This document shows, piece by piece, positions 32,594-52,287 of a stretch of 64,000 nucleotides of DNA (positions within the stretch are counted from its first letter, which is position 1; each line of letters starts with the position of its first letter). This stretch comes from an uncultured Candidatus Saccharibacteria bacterium. Its GTDB lineage: Bacteria > Patescibacteriota > Minisyncoccia > Phycocordibacterales > UBA6899. The stretch covers positions 93,164 to 157,163 of the forward strand of contig CAZERF010000002.1 of the NCBI GenBank assembly GCA_964515375.1, written 5' to 3'. The position numbers and the translations under genes are program-made. Under the pieces are notes generated by a model, which worked only from the letters and a program-made list of their open reading frames with translations, was not told the origin of the DNA and did not search any database.

Positions 32594-32594
32594 T

Positions 32595-35284: not shown

Positions 35285-35288
35285 AAAT

Positions 35289-37043
35289 ATGTCCATCCAT
35301 CCCAAAATTTCCCCACGCATCATCAACTCCATTGCGACACTCTATAACGATGTGAACCGCATCTTCATGGAGTACATTGATAATGCAATTGATAGCGCAG
35401 ACCAGAATTGGTTTGATCGTCCCCGCAATGCATACTCCCGTCCTGTTGAGGTCACTGTCCATATCAAGGGGCACAGTCATAAAGACGCAGAAGTCGTCAT
35501 TACTGACAACTGCTTTGGCATCACAAATTTCACCAAAGTCGTAGAGAGTATCGGGGACTCAGACAAGAAAGCACAAGGATTCACTAATGGACAATTTGGT
35601 TTTGGTATCTATTCCTTTATGGCGGCGTGCTCGGATCTTGAGCTCACTTCAAAAGAAGAGGGAAAGAGCGCACTTCGTCTCGTGCTTAACCGTGAACAGT
35701 TTGATAAGAAGTCAGTTGAGGAGGTTAGCATCCCCAGCCCCAAAGAAACCAAGCATTTTCCTCATGATTCGGGCACCCAAATCCGGCTTCATGGGTTTGA
35801 TAAGGACGCATGGAAAAATGTTGTTGCCAAAACGCTCAAGGAGGAGATAGAAAAACACTTTGAGCTCATTCTTCGTCGCGGGAATCTCACGGTGAAAATT
35901 ATTGATGAAACGTCGGAGCAAGAAATACTCTGTGAAGCCTTTGATTATGACAATTTTGATGGGGAGGTATACGAGGACCACATTGAACACTTTGATCTTG
36001 AGAGCGGTCGTCGCCACAAGGTGACGGAAAAGTGGGAATTGAAAGACCCGGTGCATATATTCCTGAAAATGACGAAGGGTCAGGTACTCAACAAGCCCCC
36101 AGTGTTCGTCTCAAAAGGAAGACGAATTTGTGAGATCAAGGATGTGAAGTCATTCAAGTCAGCACACAAGAGCGACATCTGGGGACACGCAAATGTCACG
36201 GGGTACATTGACCTCAAGGATCTGCTCGGGCCAACAATTGCACGCAACGACTTCAAGAGCGACAAAAACTCACGCGCTCTTTTTGCGGAACTTGTAGAGC
36301 TCGAGGATCTGATTCTTGATTATGTGAGACGTGCAAATGAGCATACTGACGAAAAACATTATCAGCAGCTTGAAGACGCGCTCAATCGCGCCCTCTCAAA
36401 GCTTGCGCGCGTTGATGCAATGAATTTCCGTACCTCTTTTCTCAAGGGTGGCGAGAAGAATCTATCTGGTGGATCTGCCGGGACGGAGTATGTAGAGGGC
36501 GTTGGGGCGCATGATTTTGGTGATGGTGAAATTGAGAATCCAGGAGAAGGAGTTGGGGAGGACGAGGGTGAGGGACTCGGGACTCACGAGGGTGGCGACG
36601 ATCTTCCGGGCGGGGCAACCTCAGGCGAACAAGCAAAGAACGAAGAACTTTTTGCTGACAGTGAATTCAAGGGCAAAGAGCGCAAGAAGAGTGGTTTCAA
36701 TATTCACATTTCTGATGCAGAGCCCCAGGTGGATGCCGAGACGGGGAAGCAACTGCGCTCACTCCTTTCGGGTGAACAAATTGTGATCTTTAAGAAGCAC
36801 GCAGATTTCCAGGCTCGCTTGAGCCACACTCGCCAAGGTGGATCAAAGATCACCGACAGACTCCTTGCGTACATTGCGGGGGAGATCACCGTGCACTACA
36901 AAGATGAGTTCTACAACAAGCGCCAGAATGGTCAGCCAGAATACAGCAAGAATATGTTCGTGAGCATGGCAGAGTTCATTTATCAACTTGAGGATGCCCT
37001 TTCCGCGCTTTCCGGGAAGAACCTCTCAGAACTCTCCTCATGA
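35289..37043 (+). CDS. GHKL-superfamily ATPase, MORC/MutL-like (HATPase_c_3-like), with an acidic low-complexity C-terminal region
   Basis: N-terminal Bergerat-fold motifs: YIDNAIDSA (N-box), DNCFGI (G1-like) and GQFGFGIYSF (G2). 584 aa. Overlaps the next gene by ATGA. Confidence 0.65.
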   Translation: MSIHPKISPRIINSIATLYNDVNRIFMEYIDNAIDSADQNWFDRPRNAYSRPVEVTVHIKGHSHKDAEVVITDNCFGITNFTKVVESIGDSDKKAQGFTNGQFGFGIYSFMAACSDLELTSKEEGKSALRLVLNREQFDKKSVEEVSIPSPKETKHFPHDSGTQIRLHGFDKDAWKNVVAKTLKEEIEKHFELILRRGNLTVKIIDETSEQEILCEAFDYDNFDGEVYEDHIEHFDLESGRRHKVTEKWELKDPVHIFLKMTKGQVLNKPPVFVSKGRRICEIKDVKSFKSAHKSDIWGHANVTGYIDLKDLLGPTIARNDFKSDKNSRALFAELVELEDLILDYVRRANEHTDEKHYQQLEDALNRALSKLARVDAMNFRTSFLKGGEKNLSGGSAGTEYVEGVGAHDFGDGEIENPGEGVGEDEGEGLGTHEGGDDLPGGATSGEQAKNEELFADSEFKGKERKKSGFNIHISDAEPQVDAETGKQLRSLLSGEQIVIFKKHADFQARLSHTRQGGSKITDRLLAYIAGEITVHYKDEFYNKRQNGQPEYSKNMFVSMAEFIYQLEDALSALSGKNLSELSS

Positions 37044-37906
37044 GCACTCAAGTCCTCATAGAAGCCATCACGCCTTCATATAATGCCTACCAGAAGGGTC
37101 AGGGTACCCTCACGCCAACCGAGCTCATTATGCTCATGTGGGACATTGGCGCAGCGATTGAGAGGCATGTGAATGAACACAAAATCCCCCCACATGCGCT
37201 GTATCGCCAGGTATATGGCAAGAGTGAGGGTACGCAAAACATCAAACAGCGCAGTTATATTGCGCGTGAGTTTTTAAGTAGAAGCTATCGCGTGAAGCGC
37301 ATATTCAAGACGAAGAGTGAGATCAAAAAGCAACTTCCGAAACTTTCCGCGATCAATCACTTTCGTGAGGCGATGCCATTTTTTGATAATCCAAAGTATG
37401 TACTTGGGGCAAAAGAAAAGCAGGAGCTCCTTCGTGTGATCAATGGTCCGCTCTCCAACAAAGAGAAAGAGAACTACATCCAGAAACTTCAATCAAAGAA
37501 AATCGGGATCAAGAATCCGCGTACACAAAATCTGAATCTCCTTGATGAGGATAAGTTGGTGTTTGTGAAGCTCTATAACGATGTGTTCAACGCACTGAAG
37601 CTTGAGAACTATGACAAGGCAAAGAAAGCCCTCTCTCTCCCGTCACCAAAATTTCTTGCGATACTTTCACTCAACTGTGGAGCTATTTCTGCCGATGGGC
37701 TCATGATGGAAAAATTTGAACCGCCGAAGGATCTCAGTGCGAAGTGGAAGGCGTTTGTCGGGGTGATACAAAAGCTCATCAAAGATGAAAACCCGAAAGA
37801 ACGTAGACGCTTCCGGAGACTCATCCCACCAGAGCGCATGATCCGACTCTCCGAAATGCTCTACGCATTGACCACTCCGGAGAAATATAAGAGCTTCAAG
37901 ATATAA
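37040..37906 (+). CDS. Hypothetical all-alpha protein co-transcribed between the GHKL ATPase and Mod
   Basis: 288 aa with no recognisable domain. Translationally coupled upstream; 16-nt gap to mod. Confidence 0.5.
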   Translation: MSTQVLIEAITPSYNAYQKGQGTLTPTELIMLMWDIGAAIERHVNEHKIPPHALYRQVYGKSEGTQNIKQRSYIAREFLSRSYRVKRIFKTKSEIKKQLPKLSAINHFREAMPFFDNPKYVLGAKEKQELLRVINGPLSNKEKENYIQKLQSKKIGIKNPRTQNLNLLDEDKLVFVKLYNDVFNALKLENYDKAKKALSLPSPKFLAILSLNCGAISADGLMMEKFEPPKDLSAKWKAFVGVIQKLIKDENPKERRRFRRLIPPERMIRLSEMLYALTTPEKYKSFKI

Positions 37907-37922
37907 TCACAAGATAAACAGC

Positions 37923-39818
37923 ATGAACAAATTTGACCCCACATCACACAACATCACGGAGGAGCAGAGAGCCCAACTGAAGGAATCGTTTCCAGAAGCA
38001 TTTACTGAGCAGGGAATAGATTTTGAGTGTCTCAAGACACTTCTCGGGGAAACGGTTGAAACAGGACCCGAGCGCTATTCCTTCACCTGGCCAGGGAAGA
38101 CTGAGGCGATTCGTGCCGCACAAGCATCAAGTATGGGCACGCTCGTTCCAGACAAAGCATCGTCAGTGGATTGGGACACCACAGAGAATCTGTATCTTGA
38201 GGGAGACAACTTGGAGATTTTGAAGCTCCTTCAGAAGTCCTACGCCGGAAAAGTGAAGATGATCTATATTGACCCTCCATACAACACTGGAAAGGACTTT
38301 GTGTACCCCGACAAGTATGGTGAGGGCCTGAAGACATACCTGGAATATACGGGGCAAATAGATGGCGAGGGAAAGAAGCTGACGACAAACACCGAAACAG
38401 ACGGTCGCTACCACTCAAAGTGGCTTAACATGATGTACCCACGACTGATGCTCGCACGGAATCTGCTCAAGGATGATGGGGTGATCTTCGTCTCAATTGA
38501 TGATCATGAGGTCCACAATCTGCGGAAGATTATGGACGAGGTTTTTGGAGCAGAGAATTTTATAGCAGTATTTACATGGGTGCGCAAAAAGAAAGGTTCA
38601 TTCTTGTCTGACAAAACAAGAAAAATGACGGAATATATAGTCTGCTACCAAAAAAATATTTCTGAAAAATTGGAGTTTTATGGAGAGGATGCATACGCGG
38701 ACAAATGGCAGCCCATCGTGAAGCGTACAAATTCAGAAAAAGAACTATCAATCCCAGAAAATGTTGTTGAAACAACACTGGAAGATGGAGAATATGAGGG
38801 TGGATTCCGAGGCAACGAAGGAACCGGTATAAATTTTCAAAACAACTTTAAAGTTGAAGATGGTCTTGTAAAAAACAGGATTATCGTACGTGGAAACTTT
38901 GTTTGGACACAAGATTTTTTAGATCGCGAACTTGTTAGTGGCACCAGGATTTCTCTCTCAACAAAATTTGGTTTTAATGTCTTGAGGCACGATCAAGAAG
39001 AAAAAACAAAAACACCGTCAACCCTAATTAATAGTGACAATGATGTTGGAACGAATGAGGATGCCACCGCTGAGGTAATCAGCCTATTTGATGGAAAGAA
39101 AGTTTTTGATTATCCAAAACCCGTATCACTACTTTCTTATTTAGTGAAAATGGTTACTTCCGAAAATGATATTGTATTAGATTTCTTTTCCGGATCAGGA
39201 ACCACCGCACATGCGCTGATGGAAATAAATGCTAAAGATGGGGGAGGGAAAAAATTTATATTAACCCAGCTTCAGGAAACAGTACCTAACGATAGTGAAG
39301 CGCAAAAATCTGGATTCCAAAATATCTCAGAACTTGGACGCGAGAGAATCAAGCGCGCCGGAAAGAAAATTCGCGAGGAACTTGCCGAGAATATCACCAC
39401 AAGAGAAACCCCACTGGACACAGGATTTAAGGTATTTCGCCTTGCTCCAAGTACGTTCAATGTTTGGGATGTGAAAGGAGAAGATGATCTTCAAGTGAAA
39501 CTCGTTGACGCCACTTCCTTGATCAAGGGGGATGCAAAAGAGGAGGACATTCTCACTGAGCTCATTTTGAAGAGTGGCTACGGACTCACAGAGAAAGTTG
39601 AGCAGATCACACTCTCCGAGAAGAAGTTTTATTCGGTCGCAGGTGGGAAGCTCATTGTTTCGCTTGAGTCAGGACTTACGCTAGAGCATGTACGGGCAAT
39701 TGCCGAGAAGAAACCGGAACAGTTTGTTGCGCAGGAGCATGGCTTTGCAAGCAACGATGTGTTGACCAACACTGCGCAGATTATGAAAGATAAGGGAATT
39801 GATTTCCGCGTACTCTAG
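37923..39818 (+). CDS. mod: Type III restriction-modification methyltransferase (Mod), N6-adenine, beta class
   Basis: IYIDPPYNTG (motif IV, DPPY), then a central variable TRD, then VLDFFSGSGTTAHA (motif I FxGxG). 631 aa. Confidence 0.85.
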   Translation: MNKFDPTSHNITEEQRAQLKESFPEAFTEQGIDFECLKTLLGETVETGPERYSFTWPGKTEAIRAAQASSMGTLVPDKASSVDWDTTENLYLEGDNLEILKLLQKSYAGKVKMIYIDPPYNTGKDFVYPDKYGEGLKTYLEYTGQIDGEGKKLTTNTETDGRYHSKWLNMMYPRLMLARNLLKDDGVIFVSIDDHEVHNLRKIMDEVFGAENFIAVFTWVRKKKGSFLSDKTRKMTEYIVCYQKNISEKLEFYGEDAYADKWQPIVKRTNSEKELSIPENVVETTLEDGEYEGGFRGNEGTGINFQNNFKVEDGLVKNRIIVRGNFVWTQDFLDRELVSGTRISLSTKFGFNVLRHDQEEKTKTPSTLINSDNDVGTNEDATAEVISLFDGKKVFDYPKPVSLLSYLVKMVTSENDIVLDFFSGSGTTAHALMEINAKDGGGKKFILTQLQETVPNDSEAQKSGFQNISELGRERIKRAGKKIREELAENITTRETPLDTGFKVFRLAPSTFNVWDVKGEDDLQVKLVDATSLIKGDAKEEDILTELILKSGYGLTEKVEQITLSEKKFYSVAGGKLIVSLESGLTLEHVRAIAEKKPEQFVAQEHGFASNDVLTNTAQIMKDKGIDFRVL

Positions 39819-39820
39819 TC

Positions 39821-42766
39821 ATGAAGCTGCAATTTGATCCAAACCAGGAGTACCAGATGGATGCGGTTCGTGCATCGGTAGATCTCTTTGAGGGGCTACC
39901 GATTGAGGAGGACAGTTTTTCCGTTTCTGTGGCAAAAGAAAATTTGCCAGGGATGTTTGAGGCGCAAACTGAAGATGTGCTCGCATTTGGAAACCACACC
40001 ACTCTCCCCGACGATGAATTATTGAAGAATCTTCAGTCTGTGCAAGAACGAAATGGGATTGAGGTCACTGAGACACTTCAGAAAACAATGGGGTATCCGC
40101 AATTCTCTGTTGAGATGGAAACTGGGACAGGAAAGACCTATGTGTATCTACGCACGATCCACGAGCTCCATGCGAAGTATGGATACAGCAAGTTTGTGAT
40201 CGTGGTTCCCGGTAAGGCAATTCGCGAGGGAACACTCAAGAATTTGGAGATCACGGGAGATCACTTCCAGACTCTCTATGGAAACACGCCATTTTCGTAT
40301 GCAGTGTATGACTCAAAAAACATGAGTACTGTGCGTGACTTTGCTGTATCGCGCGGGCTCTCAATTTTGATCATCAACATTGAGGCATTTCGTAAGGATT
40401 TTGATGATGAGAATATGGATCCCGAGAGAGGTGTGCTTTTTCATCGTCCGAGCGAGAAGCTCTCCGGTCGTTCACCGCGCGAATTCTTGCAAGCAGTCCA
40501 TCCGATTGTGATTATTGATGAACCGCAGAGTGTAGACAATACTCCGATAGCAAAGAAGTCCATCTCACTCCTTAATCCTTTATTCACCCTCCGCTATTCT
40601 GCAACGCACCGTAATCCGTACAATCTCATTTATCGCCTAGATCCCATTCGTGCGTATGAGATGCGACTCGTGAAGAAGGTCGCTGTGGCCGAAGTTCTTG
40701 GATCACAAGAATCGGGGGCAGGTGCGTATATAAAACTCATTTCAGTTACCAATGATGGAGGAATTAAGGCACAGATTGAGATTGATGAGGATAACGAAAG
40801 CGGTCCGAAGCGAAAGAAGATCAAAGTGAAGGGTGGTGACGACTTGTTTGTGAAATCCAAACATAGAGATGCTTATCAGAATGGTTTTCTGGTCGGCGAG
40901 ATTGGCGCCGAACAAGGGAAGGAGTTTATTTCTTTTGAACCAAGTGGAATCACGCTCCATATTGGCGAGGCACTCGGTGGTGACGATGAGGCTATTAAGC
41001 GCCTCCAGATCAGGAAAACGATTGAAGAACATTTTGAAAAGGAACTAGAGCTTGAAGGGCGCGGAATCAAAGTGCTCTCGCTTTTCTTTCTGGATCGTGT
41101 AGCAAACTATCGTCTCTATCCCGAAGAAGGGGAAGCTGAGAAGGGTCAGTACGCCAAGTGGTTTGAGGAAGAGTATGAGCGTCTGCGTCAGACTGAGAAA
41201 TATAAGACACTGAAGCAGCCACCAGTTGAAAAGGTGCATGATGGTTATTTTGCTGAAGACAAGAGCGGCAAACTCAAAGATTCTCGCGGTGAGGGCGATA
41301 CCGCCGACGATGAATCTGCTTACAACAAGATCATGAAAGAGAAGGAGCGCCTGCTCTCTTTTGAGGAGCCCCTCAAGTTCATTTTCTCTCACTCAGCATT
41401 GCGTGAAGGATGGGACAATCCGAATGTGTTTCAGATTTGCACACTCAATCAGGCACATAACGCGATCAAAAAGCGCCAGGAAATTGGGCGTGGGATGCGC
41501 CTCCCCGTGGATCAGAGTGGGGTCCGCGTATTTGATGAGTCAATTAACAAACTCGTTGTTGTTGCGAATGAGAGTTATAAGGATTTTGCACGAAAACTCC
41601 AGACTGAATATGAAGAAGATTGTGGGGTAACATTCGGAAAGATTACTGAGAAGACATTTGTGGGACTCACATATGAAAAAGATGGCGCAGAGGTGTTGCT
41701 AAATGAAGCAACGATTGCGACAATCATCCAAACACTTCGGACATTAGGCATGATTGATGAGAATGGCAAACTCACGGATGCTTTTGATCCTACACAAGTA
41801 GGATTCACCCTGGGGCTCATGGGAGACTTGAAGGAGATTGAACTGGAGATCATTGATCGGATCAAAGAATACCAACTTGAGCGCCATATTGTGCGTCACC
41901 AAGCGAAAGGGCGCGTTAAGATCAACAAAGAAGTATTCTTGAGCCCCGATTTTGCTGAGTTGTGGAATCGTATTAAGGCAAGAACTACCTATGCGGTGAA
42001 GTTTTCCGACGACCTACTGATAACGACAATTTCGGATCGCCTGCGTGCAATGCCCGCGATCACGCTCCCTAAGGTGCAGTATGTGAAGGCTGAGTTCTCG
42101 CTGGATGATCGTGGGGTGACAACACGCGAGGTGCGAAATAGAACCGAGGAGGTGAAGCAGGACAATGCGCAGCTTCCGGACATCCTCTCGTATCTCCAAC
42201 GAGCAACGCATCTTCGGAGGAAGACGCTCGTAGATGTACTTACGCGCTCGGGGAGGCTCGCTGATTTCGCGAAAAACCCTCAAAAATTCATGGATGTGGT
42301 GGCCGAGACAATCCGCGCTGAGCTTCGCCGTCTTTCTGTTGAGGGTATTCAGTATGAGCGTGTGGCAGGCGAGGAGTATGAAATGACCCTTTTTGAGGAT
42401 CACGAGTTTTCTGCATATTTGAGCGATCTTCTCCCGTCTAAGAAGTCGGTGTACGAACGCGTTTCCTATGACTCTGATATTGAGCGTCGCTTCGCCTTGG
42501 AGTTAGAGAAGAAGGATCAGGTCAAACTCTATGTCAAACTTCCATCATGGTTTACCGTTGAGACTCCGGTGGGCAAATACAATCCCGATTGGGCGATAGT
42601 GAAGCACGGAGACGAGAAGGTGTACTTGGTCCGAGAGACGAAAGGTTCACTTGAAGCAAGCGCGCTCCGAATTTCAGAAGATCAGAAGATCAAGTGCGGC
42701 AAGAAGCACTTCGCCTCCATCGGCATGGACAACTTTGAGGTGGTAAAAGATGCGAGTGAGATATAG
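39821..42766 (+). CDS. res: Type III restriction enzyme Res subunit (SF2 helicase + C-terminal PD-(D/E)xK nuclease)
   Basis: METGTGKTYVYLRTI (Walker A), VIIDEPQ (motif II), QxxGRGxR-like region HNAIKKRQEIGRGMRL. 981 aa. Starts 3 nt after the mod stop. Confidence 0.85.
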   Translation: MKLQFDPNQEYQMDAVRASVDLFEGLPIEEDSFSVSVAKENLPGMFEAQTEDVLAFGNHTTLPDDELLKNLQSVQERNGIEVTETLQKTMGYPQFSVEMETGTGKTYVYLRTIHELHAKYGYSKFVIVVPGKAIREGTLKNLEITGDHFQTLYGNTPFSYAVYDSKNMSTVRDFAVSRGLSILIINIEAFRKDFDDENMDPERGVLFHRPSEKLSGRSPREFLQAVHPIVIIDEPQSVDNTPIAKKSISLLNPLFTLRYSATHRNPYNLIYRLDPIRAYEMRLVKKVAVAEVLGSQESGAGAYIKLISVTNDGGIKAQIEIDEDNESGPKRKKIKVKGGDDLFVKSKHRDAYQNGFLVGEIGAEQGKEFISFEPSGITLHIGEALGGDDEAIKRLQIRKTIEEHFEKELELEGRGIKVLSLFFLDRVANYRLYPEEGEAEKGQYAKWFEEEYERLRQTEKYKTLKQPPVEKVHDGYFAEDKSGKLKDSRGEGDTADDESAYNKIMKEKERLLSFEEPLKFIFSHSALREGWDNPNVFQICTLNQAHNAIKKRQEIGRGMRLPVDQSGVRVFDESINKLVVVANESYKDFARKLQTEYEEDCGVTFGKITEKTFVGLTYEKDGAEVLLNEATIATIIQTLRTLGMIDENGKLTDAFDPTQVGFTLGLMGDLKEIELEIIDRIKEYQLERHIVRHQAKGRVKINKEVFLSPDFAELWNRIKARTTYAVKFSDDLLITTISDRLRAMPAITLPKVQYVKAEFSLDDRGVTTREVRNRTEEVKQDNAQLPDILSYLQRATHLRRKTLVDVLTRSGRLADFAKNPQKFMDVVAETIRAELRRLSVEGIQYERVAGEEYEMTLFEDHEFSAYLSDLLPSKKSVYERVSYDSDIERRFALELEKKDQVKLYVKLPSWFTVETPVGKYNPDWAIVKHGDEKVYLVRETKGSLEASALRISEDQKIKCGKKHFASIGMDNFEVVKDASEI

Positions 42767-42782
42767 CACAACAACAAACACC

Positions 42783-43316
42783 CTACGTGGGGTGTTTGTT
42801 GTTCTCGCCACTCTTTTGTTTCGCCTCTTCACATTTTCTGATTTCCTCTTCCAACTTAAATACACCTGCGAGGCCGGCGTTGTGGAGCGCTCTTGATATC
42901 TCCTCCAACATATAGTCTGGAAGACGATTCTCCAGCGGGTTACTCTCATCAGTGTATCTCCATCGAGAATCGGCATAGGTGCCATGGTGATGCTTGAGCC
43001 AGAAGACAATTGCAGTCATTGCGCCATCTTTGATTTTCTTAATGAGTTGAGACTCGGCCATATCGTTGACGAGAGTTCGTCCTTCGCTGATCGCGACCGC
43101 GCTTTCCTCGGCGAAGTGCTTATCCGAATTCATCCACTTGTAGTATGTTGCACGGGCGACCCCAGCTCGCTCGCAAGCAAGCTGGATGATCGAACTCTTG
43201 CGCAGGTGCTCAAGTACTTCCTGCTTCATTTGTGCGGTGCGCTTCTCTGTCGCACCACTTGGTTGGGACACTACTTTCTTCGGTCCCCGCTTTGGTGTGT
43301 GCGGTGACCGGGTCAT
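42783..43316 (-). CDS. HTH DNA-binding protein (terminase-small-subunit / transposase-OrfA-like HTH)
   Basis: IIQLACERAGVARATYYKWMNSDKHFAE is a typical phage/IS HTH_23-type motif. Confidence 0.55.
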   Translation of the reverse strand: MTRSPHTPKRGPKKVVSQPSGATEKRTAQMKQEVLEHLRKSSIIQLACERAGVARATYYKWMNSDKHFAEESAVAISEGRTLVNDMAESQLIKKIKDGAMTAIVFWLKHHHGTYADSRWRYTDESNPLENRLPDYMLEEISRALHNAGLAGVFKLEEEIRKCEEAKQKSGENNKHPT

Positions 43317-43325
43317 ACGAGCGAA

Positions 43326-44666
43326 TTAGTTGATCTTCTTTGCCCGCACCCCGGCTGTTTTCTCCCACCGACGCAGAATCACCTCGGCATAGACGGGGGA
43401 CTTTTCCATGAGAAAGCACCGTCGTCCAAGCTTGAGTGAGGCGATGAGGGTACTTCCGCTTCCGCCAAAGGGCTCAAGAACGAGGTCTCCGCGTTTGGTG
43501 AGCACCTTGATGTATGGGATGAGGATCTCGGTCGGCTTTGTCCCAAAGATGACCCCTTGTCCTGATGACTTCTCGTCCGCGGCGATATACTCAACGAAGT
43601 CGGTCGGACAGACCTTCTTTCCTTTCTCGTACCCCTCCCACTGGGGTTTACCACTTGTCGCATAGAGGGCATTCTCGTATTCATTCTGGAAGAGACCTTC
43701 TTCTTCCTCGAGGTTGAGTCCGACATTTCCGATTGACCCCACCAATGCAATATCTTGCTTATTGAAGAACTTATACTTTGAACTAAAGCCCTGCATTCTA
43801 TTAGGGAGATGCCAAGTGATGGTATTGCGGTACTTCCAATGCTTCTCGAGCTCGTTCCATATAGTGCGGAGATTCTTTGGGTGCTCGAAGATCATGATTG
43901 AGAAATCCTCTTTCTGCACCTTCGCGACATTTGCCATCCATTTCTCGGTAAAGTCTGGTGGAAGGACGTCGGTCTCGAGGTATCGACGGTTCTTCTTCGC
44001 CCCGAATCCAGTTGTGACACCATCCTTCTGCTTCGTTTTGCCCTTTAAATAATCAAGGATATACGGAGGATCCGTCATGGTCATGTCCACTCGCTCATCG
44101 CCCATGAGGGTGAGCATGTTCGCTTCGATGGTCGAGTCCCCACACATGAGCCGGGAGCCGTTGCATTCATAGATGTCACCCTTCTGCACTTTCACTTCTG
44201 TAATCGAGAGTTTCTCGAGTTCTTTCTTGAGATCGAATTGTTCCGGCGCAGAATCAACATCGAAGATGCTATCGAGGTCTTCCGTGGTGAAGCCAATGTC
44301 TTTCAAGAAATCCTCTCCGAAATCTGCGAGCATCTTGAAGTCGAACTCCCCGAGATTCTTATTCAGTCGCACATTAAGCTCCTTCTCCTTCGCGAGGTCT
44401 GCAATCGTGATGTACACCACGGGGACTTGTTCAACGCCAAGCTCGGTCGCTGCCTTGAGTCGGAAGTGACCGCCAATGACGATGTTCTCTCGTCCGGGCG
44501 CATCGTTTGCCACGAGCGGATCTACAAAACCGAAACGCCTGATGCTCTCCTTGAGTGCGCTCATCTGCTCCGCATTCCACGTGCGCGGGTTGTATTCGCT
44601 TGGCTTGAGGCTGGTAATCGATACATAGCTGATAGATAACTTGTTCATAACAAAATAGCTAACCAT
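43326..44666 (-). CDS. ParB-like nuclease domain fused to a DNA methyltransferase (phage-type orphan N6/N4 MTase)
   Basis: N-terminal ParBc region ISITSLKPSEYNPRTWNAEQMSALKESIRRFGFVDPLV. MTase motifs DPPY (TMTDPPYILDY) and EPFGGSGSTLIA. Confidence 0.75.
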   Translation of the reverse strand: MVSYFVMNKLSISYVSITSLKPSEYNPRTWNAEQMSALKESIRRFGFVDPLVANDAPGRENIVIGGHFRLKAATELGVEQVPVVYITIADLAKEKELNVRLNKNLGEFDFKMLADFGEDFLKDIGFTTEDLDSIFDVDSAPEQFDLKKELEKLSITEVKVQKGDIYECNGSRLMCGDSTIEANMLTLMGDERVDMTMTDPPYILDYLKGKTKQKDGVTTGFGAKKNRRYLETDVLPPDFTEKWMANVAKVQKEDFSIMIFEHPKNLRTIWNELEKHWKYRNTITWHLPNRMQGFSSKYKFFNKQDIALVGSIGNVGLNLEEEEGLFQNEYENALYATSGKPQWEGYEKGKKVCPTDFVEYIAADEKSSGQGVIFGTKPTEILIPYIKVLTKRGDLVLEPFGGSGSTLIASLKLGRRCFLMEKSPVYAEVILRRWEKTAGVRAKKIN

Positions 44667-44940
44667 TAATCAATTTGGTTTCGATTTGGGGTTGAAGCGC
44701 AAACGCTATTTGGTGAGAAACAAAAAACTCCGCGACCGCGAATGACATTCTGTGCGAGCAATGCATTCGTTACTACTTGGGAGTTCTACTTAGTGAAAAA
44801 CCTATTTGGGATACTGTTTGGTTATCTTTATGGTATGCCTTTGACGCTTTTTCGCAATGGATAGTTATCCACTATTACGCTATTCGCACCGTTGTCGGTT
44901 GGAGTATGTGGAACAAGTATGTTGGCGGTACAATATAGTG

Positions 44941-45492
44941 ATGGAAGATTTACAAGCAGAATATAGAACTGCTTACCAAAACGGTGAGTATGAAAAGTGT
45001 CTCGAGCTAACAAACGTGGTACTTACCGACGATCCTATTAATTTTGACGCACTGGCTCAGAAGGGTGCGACATTAATGCGTTTAAATAGGAACAAAGATG
45101 CAATCGAAGTATTTTCCGAATCCATCAAGGTGAACAATACTGCTTACCATGTTTGGGTATTCAGGGGAGATTGTCATTACGCGTTGGCTGATTATGAAAA
45201 AGCCTTCAGTGATTATTGGGTTTCCTTACAACTTGAACCTGACAATGGTGCAGCAGTTGATAGATGTGCTCGCTGTTTGTTTCATATGGGGGACACAAAA
45301 GAAGCATTGAAATATATAAGGAAGGCAGCCGGAATAGCAGAGTCTTCAGAGCCAATGCTGGTAATGATTCACATGTTGAAACTAATGGGATTTCCAAGTT
45401 ACGCAAAGGAAGTCTATCGAATGGGTCTTAAGAAATTTCCTGAAGAAAGCGAGAGGTTCCGTGTATTTCTAGACAGAGAAATAGAAAAATAG
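44941..45492 (+). CDS. TPR-repeat protein
   Basis: Three or four TPR-like helical repeats (AYQNGEYEKCLE..., ALADYEKAFSDY...). The start was moved to the ATG at 44941. Confidence 0.5.
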   Translation: MEDLQAEYRTAYQNGEYEKCLELTNVVLTDDPINFDALAQKGATLMRLNRNKDAIEVFSESIKVNNTAYHVWVFRGDCHYALADYEKAFSDYWVSLQLEPDNGAAVDRCARCLFHMGDTKEALKYIRKAAGIAESSEPMLVMIHMLKLMGFPSYAKEVYRMGLKKFPEESERFRVFLDREIEK

Positions 45493-45823
45493 GCACAATG
45501 CGACGGTGTGTCTACTTTGTCTACTCAATTTGGTTCGAGTCCGAGTAGGGGGGGCTGATGAAGAGTCGAACTTTTTTATGAAACCCAGGTGGTGCTTGTG
45601 GGGTCTCATGAAGTGCGAGAATCGTCAGAATGAGGAGGCGGAGGCAAGAGAGGGGGTGATGATGGGGAAGTGATCTTTTGACCCCGACCGGATAGCCTCC
45701 TGTCTACTTGAAGAAGGAGCTCAAAGAACCTTGTCAGGGCCTCGCCCCCAAAGGTCGTGACTGGATTGGCACCCAACATCACAAAAGCAGAGCGTAAGCT
45801 CTGCTTTTGTTTTGATGTTGGAG

Positions 45824-45844
45824 TGCCTACAGGGATTCGAAAGA
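45824..45844 (-). repeat. Inverted copy of the tRNA-His 3'-end core (inverted att-core fragment)
   Basis: Reverse complement ctttcgaatccctgtaggcac has 19 nt matching tRNA-His 27622-27640. It sits 214 bp before attR. Confidence 0.7.
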
Positions 45845-46057
45845 CGGAGCCGGTACACAAGACGAGCGAAGCGAGTACTTGTCGGCGAGTCGGGGTCGAC
45901 AGCACTTATGAGCGAAGCGAATTAGTGACTGGTGACCGAATCCCCCTTGCATGTTTCCGTCAGGGATTCGAAGACCGCAGTGATGTTTCGTCAGCAGACG
46001 AAACCACGAGGGGCGGGCTGCGAGCTTGTCGCGCGGGGGCGAGACAAGACTTGTTGC

Positions 46058-46076
46058 CGAATCCCTGTAGGCACCC
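46058..46076 (+). repeat. attR: 19-bp direct repeat of the tRNA-His 3' end
   Basis: cgaatccctgtaggcaccc is identical to 27625-27643. Confidence 0.8.
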
Positions 46077-46137
46077 AAAATTGCACATATTTCTTAATAT
46101 GGTATACTTAAAAAATCACAATAAACCATATTAGGAT

Positions 46138-47079
46138 ATGTCAGTACTTGAAGCAAAACTCAAAAAAAGAATTGAACAAAAAAGAGAAGCACTGAACAAT
46201 CTCCGCCCACTTTCCACAACTGCGGTCAAAAAACTTCGAGAACAATTCGAGCTCGAAATGATCTATAACTCAAATGCGATCGAGGGGAATACGTTGACCC
46301 TAAAAGAAACATTCCTCGTATTATCTGAGGGCATTACCATAAAAGGAAAGCCGCTCAAGGATCACTTGGAGGCAAAGAATCACGCAGAAGCACTCACGTA
46401 CCTGTTTGACTTGGTAGACAAGGACAAGAAACATTCGTTTTCAGAGCATCTCATCCGCACTCTTCATCAGTTGGTTGTTCTGGATACAGAGAAAGAATCG
46501 GCCGGGAAATATCGCACGAGCGGCGTACTCATTACCGGCACCACTCATCGCCCCCCAGATGCTTTTGAGGTTCCGCAATTGATGCATGAACTCATTGGAT
46601 GGGTCCGTGCGCAAAGAACGAAACTATATCCAGTGGAGCTCGCGGCGATCCTGCACCACAAGATCGTTCATATCCATCCATTCTTCGATGGGAACGGGAG
46701 AACAGCGCGCCTCGCAATGAACGTCATTTTGCTCCAGGCGGGGTTTCCGTTGGTTGTCATTCTAAAAAATGATCGCAAAAAATATTATCGCGTACTTGCC
46801 CTTGCTGATAAAGGGAACTATACCCAGCTTGTGAAATTTGTAGTTCAGGCGGTTGAGCGGTCACTCGATATGTACGTGAAGGTACTTACTCCAAAAGAGA
46901 AAAAGAGTGAAAAATTTTTTACTCTCACAGAGTTAAGCAGAGGAACCTCATATTCCGCAAAATACCTCAATTTACTTGTTCGATCAGGAAAACTCGAGGC
47001 CCACAAAGAGGGGAGGAATTGGCTCGCTTCAAAAGAGGCACTGGCTAGATATATCTCTACCCGCGAAAGAAAAAGATAA
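46138..47079 (+). CDS. Fic family protein (AMPylator) with an N-terminal inhibitory helix motif and a C-terminal winged helix
   Basis: HPFFDGNGRTARL is the Fic motif HPFx[DE]GNGR. SNAIEGN matches the class II [ST]xxxE[GN] inhibitory motif. Confidence 0.85.
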   Translation: MSVLEAKLKKRIEQKREALNNLRPLSTTAVKKLREQFELEMIYNSNAIEGNTLTLKETFLVLSEGITIKGKPLKDHLEAKNHAEALTYLFDLVDKDKKHSFSEHLIRTLHQLVVLDTEKESAGKYRTSGVLITGTTHRPPDAFEVPQLMHELIGWVRAQRTKLYPVELAAILHHKIVHIHPFFDGNGRTARLAMNVILLQAGFPLVVILKNDRKKYYRVLALADKGNYTQLVKFVVQAVERSLDMYVKVLTPKEKKSEKFFTLTELSRGTSYSAKYLNLLVRSGKLEAHKEGRNWLASKEALARYISTRERKR

Positions 47080-47344
47080 TTTCTCCAAATCCCCCTTGAT
47101 CTGTGGCCAATCAAGGGTTCTGAATACGTCCCGATGGTGGCCCAGCGAGCTTCTTGAGAAAACCCCAAAAGGGGTTTTCCCTTTTTCGCTGGGTGCCTAA
47201 GCAAGGTAACTGTTTGCCTTTTAGGGATGGAGCACAAAGACAATACCTTCCTTCTTGAGACACCACTCCTGCGGGTGAAAAATGAATAAATGCAGAAATT
47301 GGTCGCCCTTTTGTGGCGCGAACTTTTTATGGGATAGTTGAAGT

Positions 47345-47896
47345 ATGAACTATCTTGCAACTCTAAAAGATAAAGATGTCTTTCCCAACAAAACTTTCCC
47401 TGAAGTACTCGAGTGGTCGGAGCGTAAGACCGTGAAGGTCATTTTGAGAAACGAGAAAGGAGAGATCGCACTTGTGACCAATCCTATCCATAAATGCCAC
47501 CTCCTCCCCGGGGGAGGTGTCGATGAGGGTGAAGACATACTGCATGCTGGCGACCGAGAGTGTCGCGAAGAGGTGAAATATTCGATTGGCGTGGTGGAAG
47601 AAATCGGCGTTATTGAAGAGTATCATGCTCGGGATGGGAAGCATTACGAAACGCATGGGCTCATTGCGAATGCAAAAGATCACATTCCCGAAGACTTAAG
47701 GACGGAAGATGAAAAGAAGAACGAGCTTTCGGTCGAGTGGCATGCGCCAAAAGATGCTCTGGCACTGTTTGAGGCACAGAGAAAACGCCTCGAAGCGGGA
47801 GAGGTAGACTTTTACAATACTGGATTCAACATCATCAGAGACAAGCTATTTTTTGACCGCACAGTGGAAGCAGGACATATCATTCTCGGTTCATGA
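47345..47896 (+). CDS. NUDIX hydrolase
   Basis: LPGGGVDEGEDILHAGDRECREEVKYSIG is the Nudix box GX5EX7REUXEEXGU. Confidence 0.8.
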   Translation: MNYLATLKDKDVFPNKTFPEVLEWSERKTVKVILRNEKGEIALVTNPIHKCHLLPGGGVDEGEDILHAGDRECREEVKYSIGVVEEIGVIEEYHARDGKHYETHGLIANAKDHIPEDLRTEDEKKNELSVEWHAPKDALALFEAQRKRLEAGEVDFYNTGFNIIRDKLFFDRTVEAGHIILGS

Positions 47897-48108
47897 CCGG
47901 ATTGGTTCGAATCCCCTTACTCCACCCGATGCAGAGACCCAAGAAGTGACCTGGAAGAGTTGTTTTTTTTGGTAAGAAAATTTCTAAACCCCAGACTGGT
48001 TCTGTTCTGTGAATGCTATCTTTCCATCATTTACAAACGTGGCGAGGCACATACGCACACGCGAAGCAGCGAATGTGTTCTTTAATTTGGAACTGGTATA
48101 CTTAAAAG

Positions 48109-48585
48109 ATGAGAAAACGAACTACCTTTTTGGCCCTGCTATTTTTGTTGCTGATCTTTGCTGTATATTCTGCCTCACCGAGTGGTCGTTTGTGGATAAA
48201 GAATTTAGGACAAGAACGAACGGAATACAATTTTATTTATGCTTATGATTGGGAGTGGAACAATACGGGGAATTCTCCGTACAAGATAGAAGGTAATAAA
48301 ATTTTATATACATCATCTAGTACGCCTAATCCCTATCTCTTTAATGTTGCAAAAGAGGTAGGCAAGAGTATACCTGTTGACGCGATTCAAAGTCTCCGGA
48401 TTTCCGAGGATCTCGTTTCTCCTGATGGGTTTGTATTTATTCGTGAATATTTGCCCTGCGATCAAAATGGACAGTGCCCTCATATTTATTTACGGAATGT
48501 AGCTTCGGGAAATCAGCGAGAAATAGATTTACCCCCTATTGAGTTTATTGGCGGACCACACTTTGTAGGGTGGATTATTCCATAA
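48109..48585 (+). CDS. Secreted hypothetical protein (AT-rich)
   Basis: Signal peptide MRKRTTFLALLFLLLIFAVYSASP. 158 aa. Confidence 0.5.
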   Translation: MRKRTTFLALLFLLLIFAVYSASPSGRLWIKNLGQERTEYNFIYAYDWEWNNTGNSPYKIEGNKILYTSSSTPNPYLFNVAKEVGKSIPVDAIQSLRISEDLVSPDGFVFIREYLPCDQNGQCPHIYLRNVASGNQREIDLPPIEFIGGPHFVGWIIP

Positions 48586-48662
48586 TTATCGGGCACCGTT
48601 TCAGCCTCGTCCTGGCAGGTACCCCTGATGCAGAGACCTAAGAGGCAACCCGGAAGAGCTGA

Positions 48663-50654
48663 ATGCTCTTGAAAATCAACATGAAAAGAGAATATTATTC
48701 TGATTCGATTGCTAGTTTTTTAAGAACAGAATCAGATGTGATTCTTGGTATTTTGGTTAGAAATAATGATTTTAATCTAGAGCAGACACAGCGAGATTCA
48801 TGGCTCGAGGAAATAGTGATTCTCAAGAAAGCACTCGAGTGTTTTGAGGGCTCAATATATTTTGAATATTCTATCCCAAGAATGGGGAAACGAATTGATG
48901 TTGTATTGATTGTTGGAACAGCCGTATTTGTTCTCGAGTTTAAAATTGGAGAAAAGGAATATACATCGTACGCGATAGATCAGGTTTGGGATTATGCTCT
49001 CGACTTAAAAAACTTTCATAGTTCAAGCCATAAGCACTATATTGCTCCAATACTTATTGCTACAAACGCAAAATCAACTATACAAATCCCCGTTCTAACT
49101 CCTCAAAATGACAAGGTCTTGTTTCCAATAAAGACAAACGCAGATGGAATAAAAAATTCCATAGATAATGTGCTTGCTTTTTTAGATGGCGAGAACATAA
49201 AAAATGAGGAATGGGAAAAGGGTAGGTATTGTCCAACCCCCACAATCGTGGAGGCAGCAATGGCACTTTATCGTGGTCACTCGGTTGAAAATATTTCTCG
49301 AAGCGATGCTGGGGCAATAAATCTGACACAAACATCAAAAGTTGTATCGGAAATAATCGAGTTGTCAAAACAAACTCACAAAAAATCAATTTGTTTTGTG
49401 ACTGGAGTTCCAGGTGCAGGAAAAACATTAGTTGGGCTTAATATTGCGAATAAGCATATTGATAAAGACAATGATTTATATAGTGTATTTCTTTCTGGAA
49501 ACGGACCACTTGTTGCTATATTGCGAGAGGCACTCACGCGCGACAAAGTTGCTCATGAAAAAGAAAAGGGAAACAAAATTACCAAAGGTGAGGCAATGCG
49601 TGATGTAAAGTTGTTTATTCAGAATGTTCACAATTTTCGTGATGAGTGCCTTAACGATGAAAAGCCACCGCTTGAACACGTTGCACTTTTTGACGAAGCA
49701 CAGCGAGCTTGGAACATAGAGCAGACAGCAAACTTTATGTTAAGAAAAAGGCATAGACCAGGGTTTAGTCAATCAGAACCAGAATTCTTGATCTCTTGCC
49801 TGGATAGACATAATGATTGGGCTGCCGTGGTTTGTCTTGTTGGTGGGGGCCAAGAGATAAATACGGGTGAGGCGGGGATCGGTGAATGGATAGAATGTCT
49901 AAATCGTTCGTTCCCTGATTGGAATATTTATATATCATCCCGTCTCACCGACAGTGAGTATGGAGCGGGAAGGGTTTTAGGAGAAATTGCATCTCGCAAA
50001 AATGTTTTTACAAGGGATGAATTGCATCTATCCGTATCAATGCGCTCGTTTCGAGCAGAACATGTTTCTTTGTTGGTAAAACAGATTTTGGACATGGATG
50101 TCACAGGGGCGAAAAGTACCCTGAAAAAAGTTGAGGCGAGGTATCCCATAGTAATTACTCGAGATGTTTCTAAGGCAAAAGAGTGGCTCAAGAACCAGGC
50201 ACGAGGCTCAGAGCGATATGGAATGATGGTGTCGTCGCAAGCAGAAAGATTAAAGCCTTATGCGATATTTGTAAAATCAACAACAGACCCAATCCATTTG
50301 TTTTTGGATGAAAAAGATGACGTTCGGTCATCGTACTATCTTGAAGATGTTGCTACTGAGTTTGATATACAAGGCCTCGAGTTAGACTGGTCGTGCGTTG
50401 TTTGGGATGCTGATTTTAGATACACAAAAGATGGATGGGAGCATCGCTCATTTGTGGGTAGTAAATGGAACAAAATAAATAAGGTTGAGCGACAAATGTA
50501 CCTCAAGAACGCTTATCGTGTTTTACTTACGCGCGCCAGGCAGGGAATGGTAATAGTTGTACCGCTGGGTGACAAGGAAGATTCGACACGCAACCCAGAC
50601 TTCTATGATCCGACATTTCGGTATCTCAAGGAAATTGGACTAACGGAAATATAA
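48663..50654 (+). CDS. DUF2075-like P-loop NTPase / helicase-like protein with an N-terminal nuclease-like domain (defence-associated family). AT-rich.
   Basis: Walker [16 protein letters not shown]-terminal [26 protein letters not shown] looks like a PD-(D/E)xK-like core. 663 aa. The true start may be the ATG at 48681, because the conserved motif overlaps 48663. Confidence 0.6.
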
Positions 50655-50835
50655 CAATGCAACGAAACTTAACACCGACCGAGAAGCCCTTCTGTTTACG
50701 ATAAGCAGGAGCGCAAAGAACCTTTTCGAGCCGATTATATTCCTCCAATAGCGAAGGATATGCTTTTTCTATTGGAACGAACTATTCATTGTGACCGGTG
50801 GTCGTGGTGGTTGAGCGTACCAGATCACAAAAAAA

Positions 50836-50866
50836 AGACCGCTAGAGCGGTCTTTTTTATGGCATT
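50836..50866. terminator. Bidirectional intrinsic terminator between the DUF2075 gene (+) and hcp (-)
   Basis: aaaaaaaagaccgctagagcggtcttttttat. Confidence 0.7.
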
Positions 50867-50873
50867 TGTTCTC

Positions 50874-51410
50874 TTAGCTAAAGAGTCCCTTCATGAAGTC
50901 GAGGACCGCACGGACGGCCTTCTCTCCTGTCGAGCTCGACGTGTACTCGACGGTCATCTTTGTGAAGTTGAGTGAAACACTCTCGGTCGGTTCGTCCCCA
51001 CCCGCGGAGACCTCATAGCTCGTGCAACGTACACCCTCGAGTTTGTATGTAAGGTATTGTTCCGCACGATCTCCACTCGTTCGGCGCATTGTGATCACGG
51101 CGTCCTTGATGTGCTCTCCCGAAGCGCAGCGCTTCATGAGGAGAGGGGAGGACTTGTCGTATCGTTTGGTAAAGGAAAGGTCCTGCACATTGACCTTCCC
51201 GGCCCCGCCTCCGCTTCCGGTCGACATGGAGCTCGAATTGCTCATGCCCCAGCTCCACGAGGAGATCTCGATCTCGCCTTTGTGTTGTTCGTGAGTAGAT
51301 TCGCCCTCCACTCCGTTCATCTTGAGGAAATAATCCGATGCCGCGAGTGCAAACATCGGCGTTGCGAATAATGCCGCTCCGGAGAGCGCTGCAATGATAG
51401 CGTTGCGCAT
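50874..51410 (-). CDS. hcp: Hcp family protein (type VI secretion tube protein fold) carrying an N-terminal Sec signal peptide
   Basis: EISSWSWGMSNSSSMSTGSGGGAGKVNVQDLSFTKRYDKSSPLLMKRCASG aligns closely with the canonical Hcp1 core AWSWGMSQSGSMHMGGGGGAGKVNVQDLSFTKYIDKSTPNLM. Preceded by MRNAIIAALSGAALFATPMFALAAS. Confidence 0.8.
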   Translation of the reverse strand: MRNAIIAALSGAALFATPMFALAASDYFLKMNGVEGESTHEQHKGEIEISSWSWGMSNSSSMSTGSGGGAGKVNVQDLSFTKRYDKSSPLLMKRCASGEHIKDAVITMRRTSGDRAEQYLTYKLEGVRCTSYEVSAGGDEPTESVSLNFTKMTVEYTSSSTGEKAVRAVLDFMKGLFS

Positions 51411-51561
51411 ATGATGATCTTCTAGAGATTCTAAATAATGAAAAACTTCGCGCGCCGAGCATGGCCCAGCCGTATATTCAGTATAGAACTGCCGAAAGTG
51501 GTGTCAATGTGGAATTTTTCATTGGTATTCCTTGTCTTCTGGGAATGGTATACTGACCCAT

Positions 51562-52287
51562 ATGCTCAATGTCACCCAACTTACCAAAACATTTGGAGCA
51601 AAGATCGCCGCGAGCGACGTTTCTTTCACGATCGCGCCGGGCGAGATCTTTGCGCTTATCGGCCCTAATAGCTCGGGAAAGACGACCATCGTGAAGTCGA
51701 TCCTCGGGATGCTTGCGTTTGAGAAAGGAACGATCACTGTCGACAATATCGACGTGGCCAAGAACCCTGTCGGAGCAAAGGCGCGAATCGGATATATTCC
51801 GGACGAACCTGTCGTGTGGAGCGGAATGACCGGGGAAGAATTCTTGCATTTCGTCAGTGCGCTTTATGATGTTTCACCGGCGACACGCGCCGAACGCATC
51901 GCGCGTATACTCCCCATCTTTCGTCTCGAAGGTATCGAAAAGGAATATTTTACCGCATACTCACGCGGTAATAAACAAAAATTCAGTATCCTTTCGGCGC
52001 TTGTCCATGAACCGAAACTTCTTCTTATTGACGAGCCGATCGTCGGACTTGACCCGGAAAGCGCGGCGATCGCGAAGGGCGAGTTTGTGCGCTTTGCGAA
52101 GGATGGAGGTGCTGTACTCCTCGTTACACACACGCTCTCCGTTGCAGAGGAGATCGCACATCGTATCGGTGTGCTCAAAGAAGGAAAACTTCTCGCGGTC
52201 GGAACATTCGCGGAGCTGCGCGATCTCGCCGGTCTTGGCACCAGCGCATCGCTTGAGGAGGTTTATACGCGTCTCACTACACGTTGA
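51562..52287 (+). CDS. ABC transporter ATP-binding protein
   Basis: Walker A GPNSSGKTT, ABC signature YSRGNKQKFSI and Walker B LLLIDEP. Confidence 0.85.
   Translation: MLNVTQLTKTFGAKIAASDVSFTIAPGEIFALIGPNSSGKTTIVKSILGMLAFEKGTITVDNIDVAKNPVGAKARIGYIPDEPVVWSGMTGEEFLHFVSALYDVSPATRAERIARILPIFRLEGIEKEYFTAYSRGNKQKFSILSALVHEPKLLLIDEPIVGLDPESAAIAKGEFVRFAKDGGAVLLVTHTLSVAEEIAHRIGVLKEGKLLAVGTFAELRDLAGLGTSASLEEVYTRLTTR

Follow-up and report, generated by a model that had tools for sequence, protein, structure and literature searches.

A probable mosaic segment and its Nhi-like nuclease-helicase gene beside a tRNA-His integration hot spot in an uncultured Saccharibacteria bacterium

Which genes at the edge of a mobile island belong to mobile DNA, and which are long-standing neighbors of the integration site? 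This question is raised by the segment at positions 46077-50860 of a window of 64,000 nucleotides (nt) from contig CAZERF010000002.1 (GenBank assembly GCA_964515375.1) of an uncultured Candidatus Saccharibacteria bacterium. In this window, a tRNA-His gene is followed by a mobile island and then by four open reading frames (ORFs), which encode a Fic protein, a NUDIX hydrolase, a 158-amino-acid (aa) protein of secreted type, and a nucleoside triphosphatase (NTPase). All four were recovered by ORF listing where an initial annotation, made from the DNA letters alone, had placed them. That annotation treated the entire segment as accessory DNA beyond the island. We consider it likely, taking the explanation as a whole, that the segment is instead a mosaic lying to the right of a hot spot where elements integrate at tRNA-His. 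Just two genes, the 158-aa ORFan and the NTPase gene, look like cargo; both are read this way because of their low G+C content at third codon positions (GC3), the decayed copy of an island left end upstream of each, and their absence after the Fic and NUDIX genes in the relatives examined. Relatives of the window genome were recognized by synteny and by possession of the same tRNA set. In general terms, the region is an ordinary defense hot spot, and the NTPase is its gene of interest.

The NTPase and the Nhi-like family

The NTPase ORF lies on the plus strand at 48663-50654 (663 aa), and its product matches SLFN-g3_helicase/DUF2075 (PF09848) in Pfam at 3.3e-80 over aa 241-634. In PADLOC, profile PDC-S41 aligns aa 7-663 of the protein to profile positions 1-653 of 657 (E 1e-286). 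The comparison used the Nhi-like protein (SG141) of Bacillus cereus FSL H8-0482, which is listed as "Verified" for defense in Table S17 of Millman et al. (10.1101/2022.05.11.491447) and for which sequence and source were taken from the supplement of that 2022 study (Table S17/file 11). Single-gene protection of cells against phage has been shown for this B. cereus member only. The best PADLOC model for the verified protein is likewise PDC-S41 (8.8e-76). BLASTP aligns the window NTPase colinearly with its first 399 aa (26% identity, E 8e-40), bringing E62, D73, E86-x-K88, the Walker A motif (GxPGAGKT), SGNGPLV, and an identical FDEAQRAW into register. A full-length homologue encoded on a B. cereus plasmid, which itself matches PDC-S41 at 1e-114, aligns at 27% identity (E 2e-61). 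Because PDC-S41 is the best model for both the window protein and the verified protein and the two align colinearly, the window NTPase is, as judged from its sequence, a member of the known and experimentally validated Nhi-like family; PDC-S41 and Nhi-like/SG141 are one family. Membership in a verified family bears out the expectation of a defense-type gene. The suggestion that the gene is a novel Schlafen-like defense candidate does not hold, as the family has already been classified and one member tested. A 2025 preprint describes Nhi-like as a PD-(D/E)XK domain plus a superfamily 1 (SF1) helicase (10.1101/2025.07.10.664194).

The extent of the gene requires one correction. All 120 of the 120 closest homologues are ∼657 aa long and begin with MKREYY; the true start is therefore probably M7, at 48681, rather than 48663, so that the ORF of 663 aa stands as an ORF and the single-protein nuclease-helicase itself would span 48681-50654 (plus strand, 657 aa). 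Its parts, supported by profile, BLASTP, and structure-model evidence, are a PD-(D/E)xK-like domain at aa 1-∼130 (E62, D73, E86, and K88), a conserved linker, and an SF1/DUF2075 helicase with Walker A at aa 242-249, FDEAQRAW at 337-344, and a further conserved motif at 612-622. Two of the helicase motifs are invariant or >90% conserved across 51 aligned sequences. In the DNA, D73 and E86-x-K88 lie at 48891-48944 and the Walker A sequence GVPGAGKT at 49404-49427. The gene is AT-rich, as the initial annotation had noted, with a G+C content (GC) of 0.40 and a GC3 of 0.339; the flanking host DNA has a GC of 0.52, and most sampled host genes have a GC3 of 0.56-0.77. Its foreign composition, together with the occurrence of close homologues in many phyla, points to horizontal acquisition.

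In sample SRR30113340 (contig L153, position 4187), a G50186A substitution turns the TGG codon of the invariant W502 (50184-50186) into a TGA stop, splitting the gene into 501 + 143 aa. This W502* variant could reflect a population allele that has lost function or, alternatively, a mistake in assembly.

The N-terminus looks like a PD-(D/E)xK nuclease in structure models, as had been proposed from the sequence. AlphaFold gave a predicted local distance difference test (pLDDT) score of 72.6 for the full-length protein and 78.6 for the N-terminal domain alone. The domain model comprises a helix at 35-54, strands at 57-64, 71-78, and 81-88, a helix at 96-112, and a strand at 120-127, an alpha-beta-beta-beta-alpha-beta topology that corresponds to the canonical PD-(D/E)xK core. 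In this model, D73 opens the second strand and E86-x-K88 lies within the third. In an alignment of sequences 37 to 49% identical to the query, E62, E86, and K88 never vary, and conservation of D73 reaches at least 90%. The fold search is suggestive only: 4 of the top 5 and 6 of the top 16 Foldseek matches in the Protein Data Bank (PDB) are entries that we take to carry PD-(D/E)xK domains, namely VC1899, Cdn1 (two entries), McrC, DdmD, and EcoO109I. Matches of the full-length model were RecD (4.5e-6), SLFN11 (6e-5), SLFN14 (1.2e-3), and Upf1.

Homologues of the NTPase are numerous and widely scattered. More than 8,000 database clusters match it, the best 120 of which are 73 to 100% identical, and at least 598 species genomes, spread over more than 12 phyla, encode copies with 57 to 80% identity; these phyla include Patescibacteria, Acidobacteriota, Bacteroidota, Planctomycetota, Chloroflexota, Proteobacteria, Verrucomicrobiota, and Nitrospirota. 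Plasmid copies are rare (48 records, mostly Bacillus), and a single full-length match was found in phages. Complete proteins among the matches to the N-terminal domain are ∼650 to 830 aa long and carry the domain at their N-terminus, the remainder being shorter and probably fragments; the domain seems to be coupled to the helicase nearly always. Defense and mobile genes among the neighbors of homologues include GajB/UvrD, mad2, PDC-S02/S05, methylases, PIN, and Fic. No similarity was found between the flanks of the window's Nhi-like cassette and the homologue loci in 80 other genomes.

A small HTH_3 (XRE) gene stands upstream of the homologue in five Paceibacterota contigs that represent one conserved locus, HTH-like ORFs precede homologues in two other loci, and an AbrB/SpoVT-like gene does so in three more. 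The HTH_3 or AbrB/SpoVT-like gene lies 4 to 40 nt upstream (contigs L003-L007, 7775-7996; L028, L056, and L057, ∼7700-8000). Such a gene, absent in the window, may be a regulator or an antitoxin-like partner in a subset of genomes. A two-gene system was considered and rejected, as no partner gene recurs beyond the HTH_3, HTH-like, and AbrB-like subsets.

The island boundary and the Fic gene

The tRNA-His gene that serves as the integration hot spot was called by ARAGORN at 27571-27646 (plus strand) and contains a crossover core, GGCACCC, at 27638-27644. Two metagenomic contigs determine what is inserted there. Contig L155 (3.4 kb, positions 1-3384; sample SRR35539484) is 100% identical to window positions 27546-27644 and then to 45768-49059, the two blocks overlapping in GGCACCC (L155 nt 93-99 correspond to window 27638-27644 as well as to 45768-45774). 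It is an empty site, in which tRNA-His is joined directly to window position 45768. Contig L144 (5340-5700, minus strand) aligns with the window from ∼45500 to GACTGGATTGGCACCC (45775) and then enters the left-end motif, diverging from the window exactly at the core at 45768-45774. It represents joined ends, as would be found at the attP of a circularized element or between tandem copies, and a serine recombinase 94.5% identical to that of the window is encoded 2 kb from the junction. Since the empty site in L155 and the joined ends in L144 fix both ends, the polymorphic island is 27645-45774 (18,130 bp), and it is absent from L155. The attR core GGCACCC lies on the plus strand at 45768-45774. 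An attR at ∼46077, which had been taken as the boundary of the mobile island, is rejected, because the empty-site allele places that boundary at 45768-45774.

According to Pfam and PADLOC matches, the island encodes a large serine recombinase (33606-34925, minus strand) and a complete type III restriction-modification (R-M) system comprising Mod (37923-39818; PADLOC 5e-194) and Res (39821-42766; PADLOC 6e-292). It further carries a ParB-N6/N4 methyltransferase fusion (43326-44666, minus strand), a DUF4238 protein (28712-29815), and a tetratricopeptide repeat (TPR) protein, and its left end bears the conserved motif at 27644-27706.

Between the island and the Fic gene, a spacer of ∼300 nt (45775-46079, plus strand) is kept in the island-free allele. 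It starts with a hairpin of terminator type (45781-45810), followed by two copies of the tRNA-His 3' end, one inverted (45818-45839) and one direct (46058-46079); the direct copy is the 22-nt repeat near which attR had been placed, and as a repeat it is real. Together with the tRNA, this repeat brackets the spacer. On the strength of the inverted repeat, the terminator, and L155, we read the spacer as the remnant of an older insertion. In the island-free allele, L155 positions 81-160 (window 27626-27644 plus 45775-45839) form a near-palindrome of ∼80 nt, made up of the tRNA-His 3' end, a hairpin with a 13-bp stem, and the inverted tRNA 3' copy. On the other side of the hot spot, contigs with the gene upstream of tRNA-His all end before the tRNA. 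When the species genomes were searched for relatives with the ABC permease, none were found, and the exact ABC ATPase sequence is not on record.

The Fic gene (46138-47079, plus strand) matches Pfam Fic at 1.6e-23, the PADLOC SoFic profile at 1e-36, and FICD in the PDB at 2e-41. As initially annotated, it encodes the catalytic motif HPFFDGNGR (46675-46701) and the inhibitory-helix motif SNAIEGN (46270-46290; aa 45-51), which aligns with TVAIEGN of FICD. The class II of Engel et al. (2012) is reportedly defined by an HxFx(D/E)GNGRxxR site and an (S/T)xxxE(G/N) motif N-terminal to the core; the window protein has both, HPFFDGNGRTAR as its active site (aa 180-191) and SNAIEGN ahead of the core on the one chain, which makes it a class II, FICD-like Fic. 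At its C-terminus is an excisionase/MerR-type helix-turn-helix (HTH) at aa 260-306 (HTH_17, 2.5e-4). A conserved palindrome, TTAATATGGTATA...TAAACCATATTAA, extends from the Fic promoter to the start codon (46089-46139, plus strand). It lies within the ∼60-nt Fic leader, and many of its positions are invariant in an alignment of five sequences from relatives. We infer that it is a putative operator for the C-terminal HTH of Fic itself, that is, a site of autoregulation. A terminator follows the gene at 47158-47179.

Three related contexts (L145/L146/L147; L148, from assembly GCA_021733405.1; and L149) encode a Fic protein 76 to 77% identical to that of the window. In two of them, those whose contigs reach the tRNA, tRNA-His lies 6 to 8 kb upstream of Fic, and the island content in between differs; in L149, Fic lies at the very start of the contig. 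Nucleotide homology to all relatives begins at 46077-46081, with a degenerate tRNA-His 3' fragment just upstream in each, and Fic plus ∼60 nt of promoter is 70 to 72% identical across the three contexts. The island-free allele keeps Fic as well. On the simplest account, Fic is the conserved right-hand neighbor of the tRNA-His hot spot and not recent cargo, and its initial assignment to the cargo gives way to this constancy of place. Immediately after the Fic stop codon, window 47082-47115 matches L145 10903-10936, where Fic is followed by a DUF2750 gene and the matching stretch is the 3' end of that gene; this suggests that a small gene between Fic and the next gene was deleted in the window or inserted in L145.

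The NUDIX gene, the junction copies, and two proposed cassettes

The NUDIX hydrolase gene (47345-47896, plus strand) is confirmed by a Pfam match (1.1e-13) and a Nudix box of the REx2EE type at 47513-47581 (GGVDEGEDILHAGDRECREEVKY, aa 57-79), which departs from GX5EX7REUXEEXGU at one position only, where K replaces the penultimate G. NCBIfam gave no equivalog-level assignment. In L149, a homologue 57% identical to it lies 1.3 kb downstream of Fic, which argues against the NUDIX gene as cargo. In L145, a NUDIX gene lies 3 kb downstream of Fic, and its product is not detectably similar to that of the window. Perhaps the NUDIX gene, too, is part of the conserved right flank.

Beyond the NUDIX gene, the signs of insertion resume. 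The end motif occurs in three copies in the window, at 27650, 47931, and 48630, where 0.00 are expected by chance, so the repetition to which the initial annotation drew attention is significant and two copies do lie inside the segment. In related metagenomic contigs with a recombinase 87 to 95% identical to that of the island, the motif follows tRNA-His or tRNA-like fragments, and the empty-site allele lacks it, which assigns it to the element family and not to the chromosome. A metagenome scan for the motif returned 53 matches, 48 of them at chance level and only 5 extending into real homology.

Junction copy 2 (47893-47989, plus strand) consists of a right-end-like GACCGGATTGG, a tRNA-like 22-mer (TTCGAATCCCCTTACTCCACCC), the left-end motif, a hairpin, and a T-run, and it is 77 to 81% identical to left ends in L145 and L144. 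The tRNA-like fragment here (GGTTCGAATCCCCTTACTCCACCC, ∼47904-47927) had been described as overlapping the 3' end of the NUDIX gene; the fragment is present and abuts the stop codon (47894-47896) without overlapping the coding sequence. Neither ARAGORN nor Rfam called a tRNA at this fragment. An Rfam scan of 44500-52000 at E ≤ 1 returned nothing, so the tRNA-like fragments are not RNA genes. Junction copy 3 (48602-48667, plus strand) is attL-like, with a decayed 3' part of tRNA-His (CAGCC..TCCTGGCAGGTACCCC) followed by the left-end motif.

The 158-aa ORFan (48109-48585, plus strand) lies between these two copies. It has a signal-peptide-like N-terminus (MRKRTTFLALLFLLLIFAVYSASP) and a GC3 of 0.33, finds no match in Pfam, NCBIfam, or PADLOC, and matches only itself among 5.8 billion protein clusters. 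The Nhi-like gene follows copy 3, and downstream of it a right-end-like remnant (50673-50727, plus strand) is 80% identical over 40 nt to 45696-45735; 50766 is the last position reached by L152, a contig of 27 kb from a different sample. Neither the ORFan nor the Nhi-like gene was found after Fic and NUDIX in L145, L148, and L149. The cassettes would thus be two small decayed elements, the first with the ORFan and the second with the Nhi-like gene, and their scars, composition, and absence in relatives point to mobility. For these two genes, the initial idea of small tandem elements is reasonable, the motif being the left end of an island family that targets tRNA-His. The comparison of synteny with relatives accordingly divides the segment: Fic is kept beside tRNA-His, and the ORFan and the Nhi-like gene are not.

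Host composition returns with an Hcp-family gene (50874-51410, minus strand; Pfam T6SS_HCP 4.3e-45; GC3 0.68). This protein, of the type VI secretion tube family, has a signal-peptide-like N-terminus, and its gene is solitary and adjoins an ABC transporter; no further type VI secretion genes are present among the annotated neighboring ORFs at 50.9 to 54.8 kb. An inverted repeat at 50821-50868, between the convergent Nhi-like and Hcp genes, forms a hairpin that is a putative bidirectional terminator, although a consensus terminator scan did not flag it.

Rival readings, proposed mechanism, and known systems

The mosaic has to be weighed against a reading in which the whole of 46077-50860, Fic and NUDIX included, is cargo of small tandem elements beyond the main island. 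In its favor, a 22-nt repeat of the tRNA-His 3' end immediately precedes Fic, several samples have contigs that break shortly before Fic, the genes after Fic differ between relatives, and Fic matches the SoFic defense model. In addition, the Fic and NUDIX genes have a GC3 of 0.47 to 0.49, below most host genes, and the right-end-like GACCGGATTGG of copy 2 overlaps the NUDIX stop codon, as if an element had ended there; both features fit Fic-NUDIX as old cargo and count against the mosaic. What makes the all-cargo reading unlikely in our judgment is the recurrence of Fic with ∼60 nt of promoter in three related contexts, with the same homology boundary in all, the position of tRNA-His 6 to 8 kb upstream of Fic in two of them, and the persistence of Fic in the island-free allele. 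No left-end motif follows the fragment at 46058-46079, and an ancestral adjacency of tRNA-His and Fic accounts for all of this equally well or better. Other observations weigh against the mosaic on the side of the cassettes, which have neither a recombinase nor a convincing right-hand core; moreover, no cassette-less allele was seen, as all contigs with the exact NUDIX or ORFan protein keep the same gene order. A bolder version of cassette mobility, in which the tRNA-His-proximal array is an integron-like system of single genes, each with a ∼65-nt left-end site, which the neighboring island family's large serine recombinase would capture and stack in trans, strikes us as quite unlikely.

The identity of the NTPase admits a rival of its own, namely, a housekeeping or repair nuclease-helicase (Dna2/RecD-like) whose placement is incidental. 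Across phyla, the 657 aa remain 57 to 83% identical, more conservation than is usual in a defense gene; many immediate neighbors of homologues are housekeeping genes, among them GyrB, a tRNA synthetase, and TruB; and two of the structural neighbors, RecD and Upf1, have no role in immunity. Other points count against the favored explanation itself. With an identity to the verified protein of no more than 26 to 27%, the transfer of function is by inference. The N-terminal region (aa 1-232) finds no match in Pfam even at E ≤ 10, the N-terminal domain has none in NCBIfam, and neither phmmer nor profile searches (the domain profile being built from sequences 37 to 49% identical to the query) gave a meaningful PDB sequence match for the NTPase or the domain. 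Against the housekeeping rival stand the homology to a verified defense protein and to a PADLOC candidate-defense profile, a patchy distribution with no conserved partner or position, the foreign codon composition and junction remnants in the window, and the W502* nonsense allele in one sample, unexpected for an essential gene; a housekeeping role is very unlikely in this light. Least probable of all, we believe, is that Fic and NUDIX form a functional pair, for instance in control of AMPylation or degradation of a nucleotide signal, with the four genes as one defense module. Fic and a NUDIX gene do lie within 1.3 to 3 kb of each other in L149 and L145, and Fic domains occur in 3 of 139 neighbor ORFs of Nhi-like homologues. 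However, a terminator follows Fic, variable genes separate Fic and NUDIX in relatives, the L145 NUDIX is dissimilar, in L148 none of the seven genes called over the 7 kb that follow Fic encodes a NUDIX, and the Nhi-like gene is solitary in most genomes.

Under the mosaic that we favor, islands would insert between tRNA-His and Fic, leaving Fic and, less certainly, NUDIX as the conserved neighbor of the lineage. Fic would be a FICD-like AMPylase of class II that inhibits itself and carries an HTH, which may bind the palindrome in the gene's own promoter. Each cassette would begin with a degenerate junction of the island family, composed of a tRNA-like 3' piece and a ∼65-nt left-end motif. The Nhi-like protein would be expected by homology to act alone, as a single polypeptide, with its SF1/DUF2075 motor (Walker A K248, Walker B D338/E339) loading on and translocating along invading DNA and its N-terminal PD-(D/E)xK domain (E62, D73, E86, and K88) cutting that DNA. 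Methylation of phage DNA probably sensitizes the target, because loss of a phage DNA methylase lets phages evade the verified member (10.1101/2022.08.27.505566). By analogy with that member, the window protein would have nuclease and helicase activity, sense methylation, and protect its host against phages, and an attack on methylated phage DNA would complement the type III R-M system of the adjacent island.

As to what the locus adds, Nhi-like immunity, a verified type that relies on one nuclease-helicase protein, is documented here in a probable Patescibacteria genome, beside a type III R-M island whose presence/absence polymorphism is resolved to the base pair. Annotators can treat PDC-S41 and Nhi-like/SG141 as equivalent and can place the true boundary of the island. 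These results should be useful to defense surveys of ultra-small bacteria; no new mechanism is revealed. If the integron-like reading were true, it would describe a route by which the tiny genomes of the candidate phyla radiation (CPR) exchange single defense genes, and it could explain the 57 to 83% identity of the Nhi-like clade across phyla.

Set beside known systems, the main island resembles other serine-recombinase islands at tRNA genes in that it encodes such a recombinase and shares a short core, GGCACCC, with the 3' end of tRNA-His, and for it both the empty-site allele and the joined-ends sequence were seen in metagenomes. The two cassettes differ, having only decayed left junctions, no recombinase, and no empty allele among those seen. 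The window Fic shares the HPFxDGNGRxxR site with the class II AMPylases FICD/HYPE, which are its best PDB matches (2e-41), and its SNAIEGN is almost identical to the TVAIEGN of FICD. As for SoFic (Millman et al. 2022), the PADLOC profile matches at 1e-36, whereas the NCBIfam SoFic equivalog NF046030 scores 38.1 bits against a cutoff of 550, so the protein is not a SoFic orthologue. Unlike both SoFic and FICD, it has an excisionase/MerR-like HTH at its C-terminus, and its gene is preceded by a conserved palindrome.

The Nhi-like protein itself shares with group III Schlafens (SLFN11 and SLFN14) the PF09848 helicase (3.3e-80) and the Foldseek matches given above. It differs from them in that no Schlafen core (AlbA_2-type) was detected at its N-terminus; with no Pfam family at aa 1-232, it was not assigned to that group. 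Nhi (SERP2475, Staphylococcus epidermidis; Bari et al. 2022) combines nuclease and helicase in one polypeptide that restricts phages (10.1101/776245), and Nhi and AbiO follow the same logic of PD-(D/E)xK plus DUF2075 SF1 helicase. The defense scan that had been proposed for the region separates these relatives: PDC-S41 matches the NTPase at full length, whereas the PADLOC Nhi and AbiO profiles reach 20.9 and 24.9 bits and are confined to aa 225-276, the Walker A region, with no match beyond the P-loop; they give no evidence of membership in Nhi (SERP2475)/AbiO. Closest is Nhi-like/SG141, likewise a single chain of ∼610 to 660 aa in which E...D...ExK precedes a DUF2075/SF1 helicase; SGNGPLV and FDEAQRAW are identical in the two, PDC-S41 is the best PADLOC profile of both, and they align colinearly over the whole length. 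The window clade differs from the verified member in being far more conserved (57 to 83%) and in occurring in environmental phyla, including Patescibacteria.

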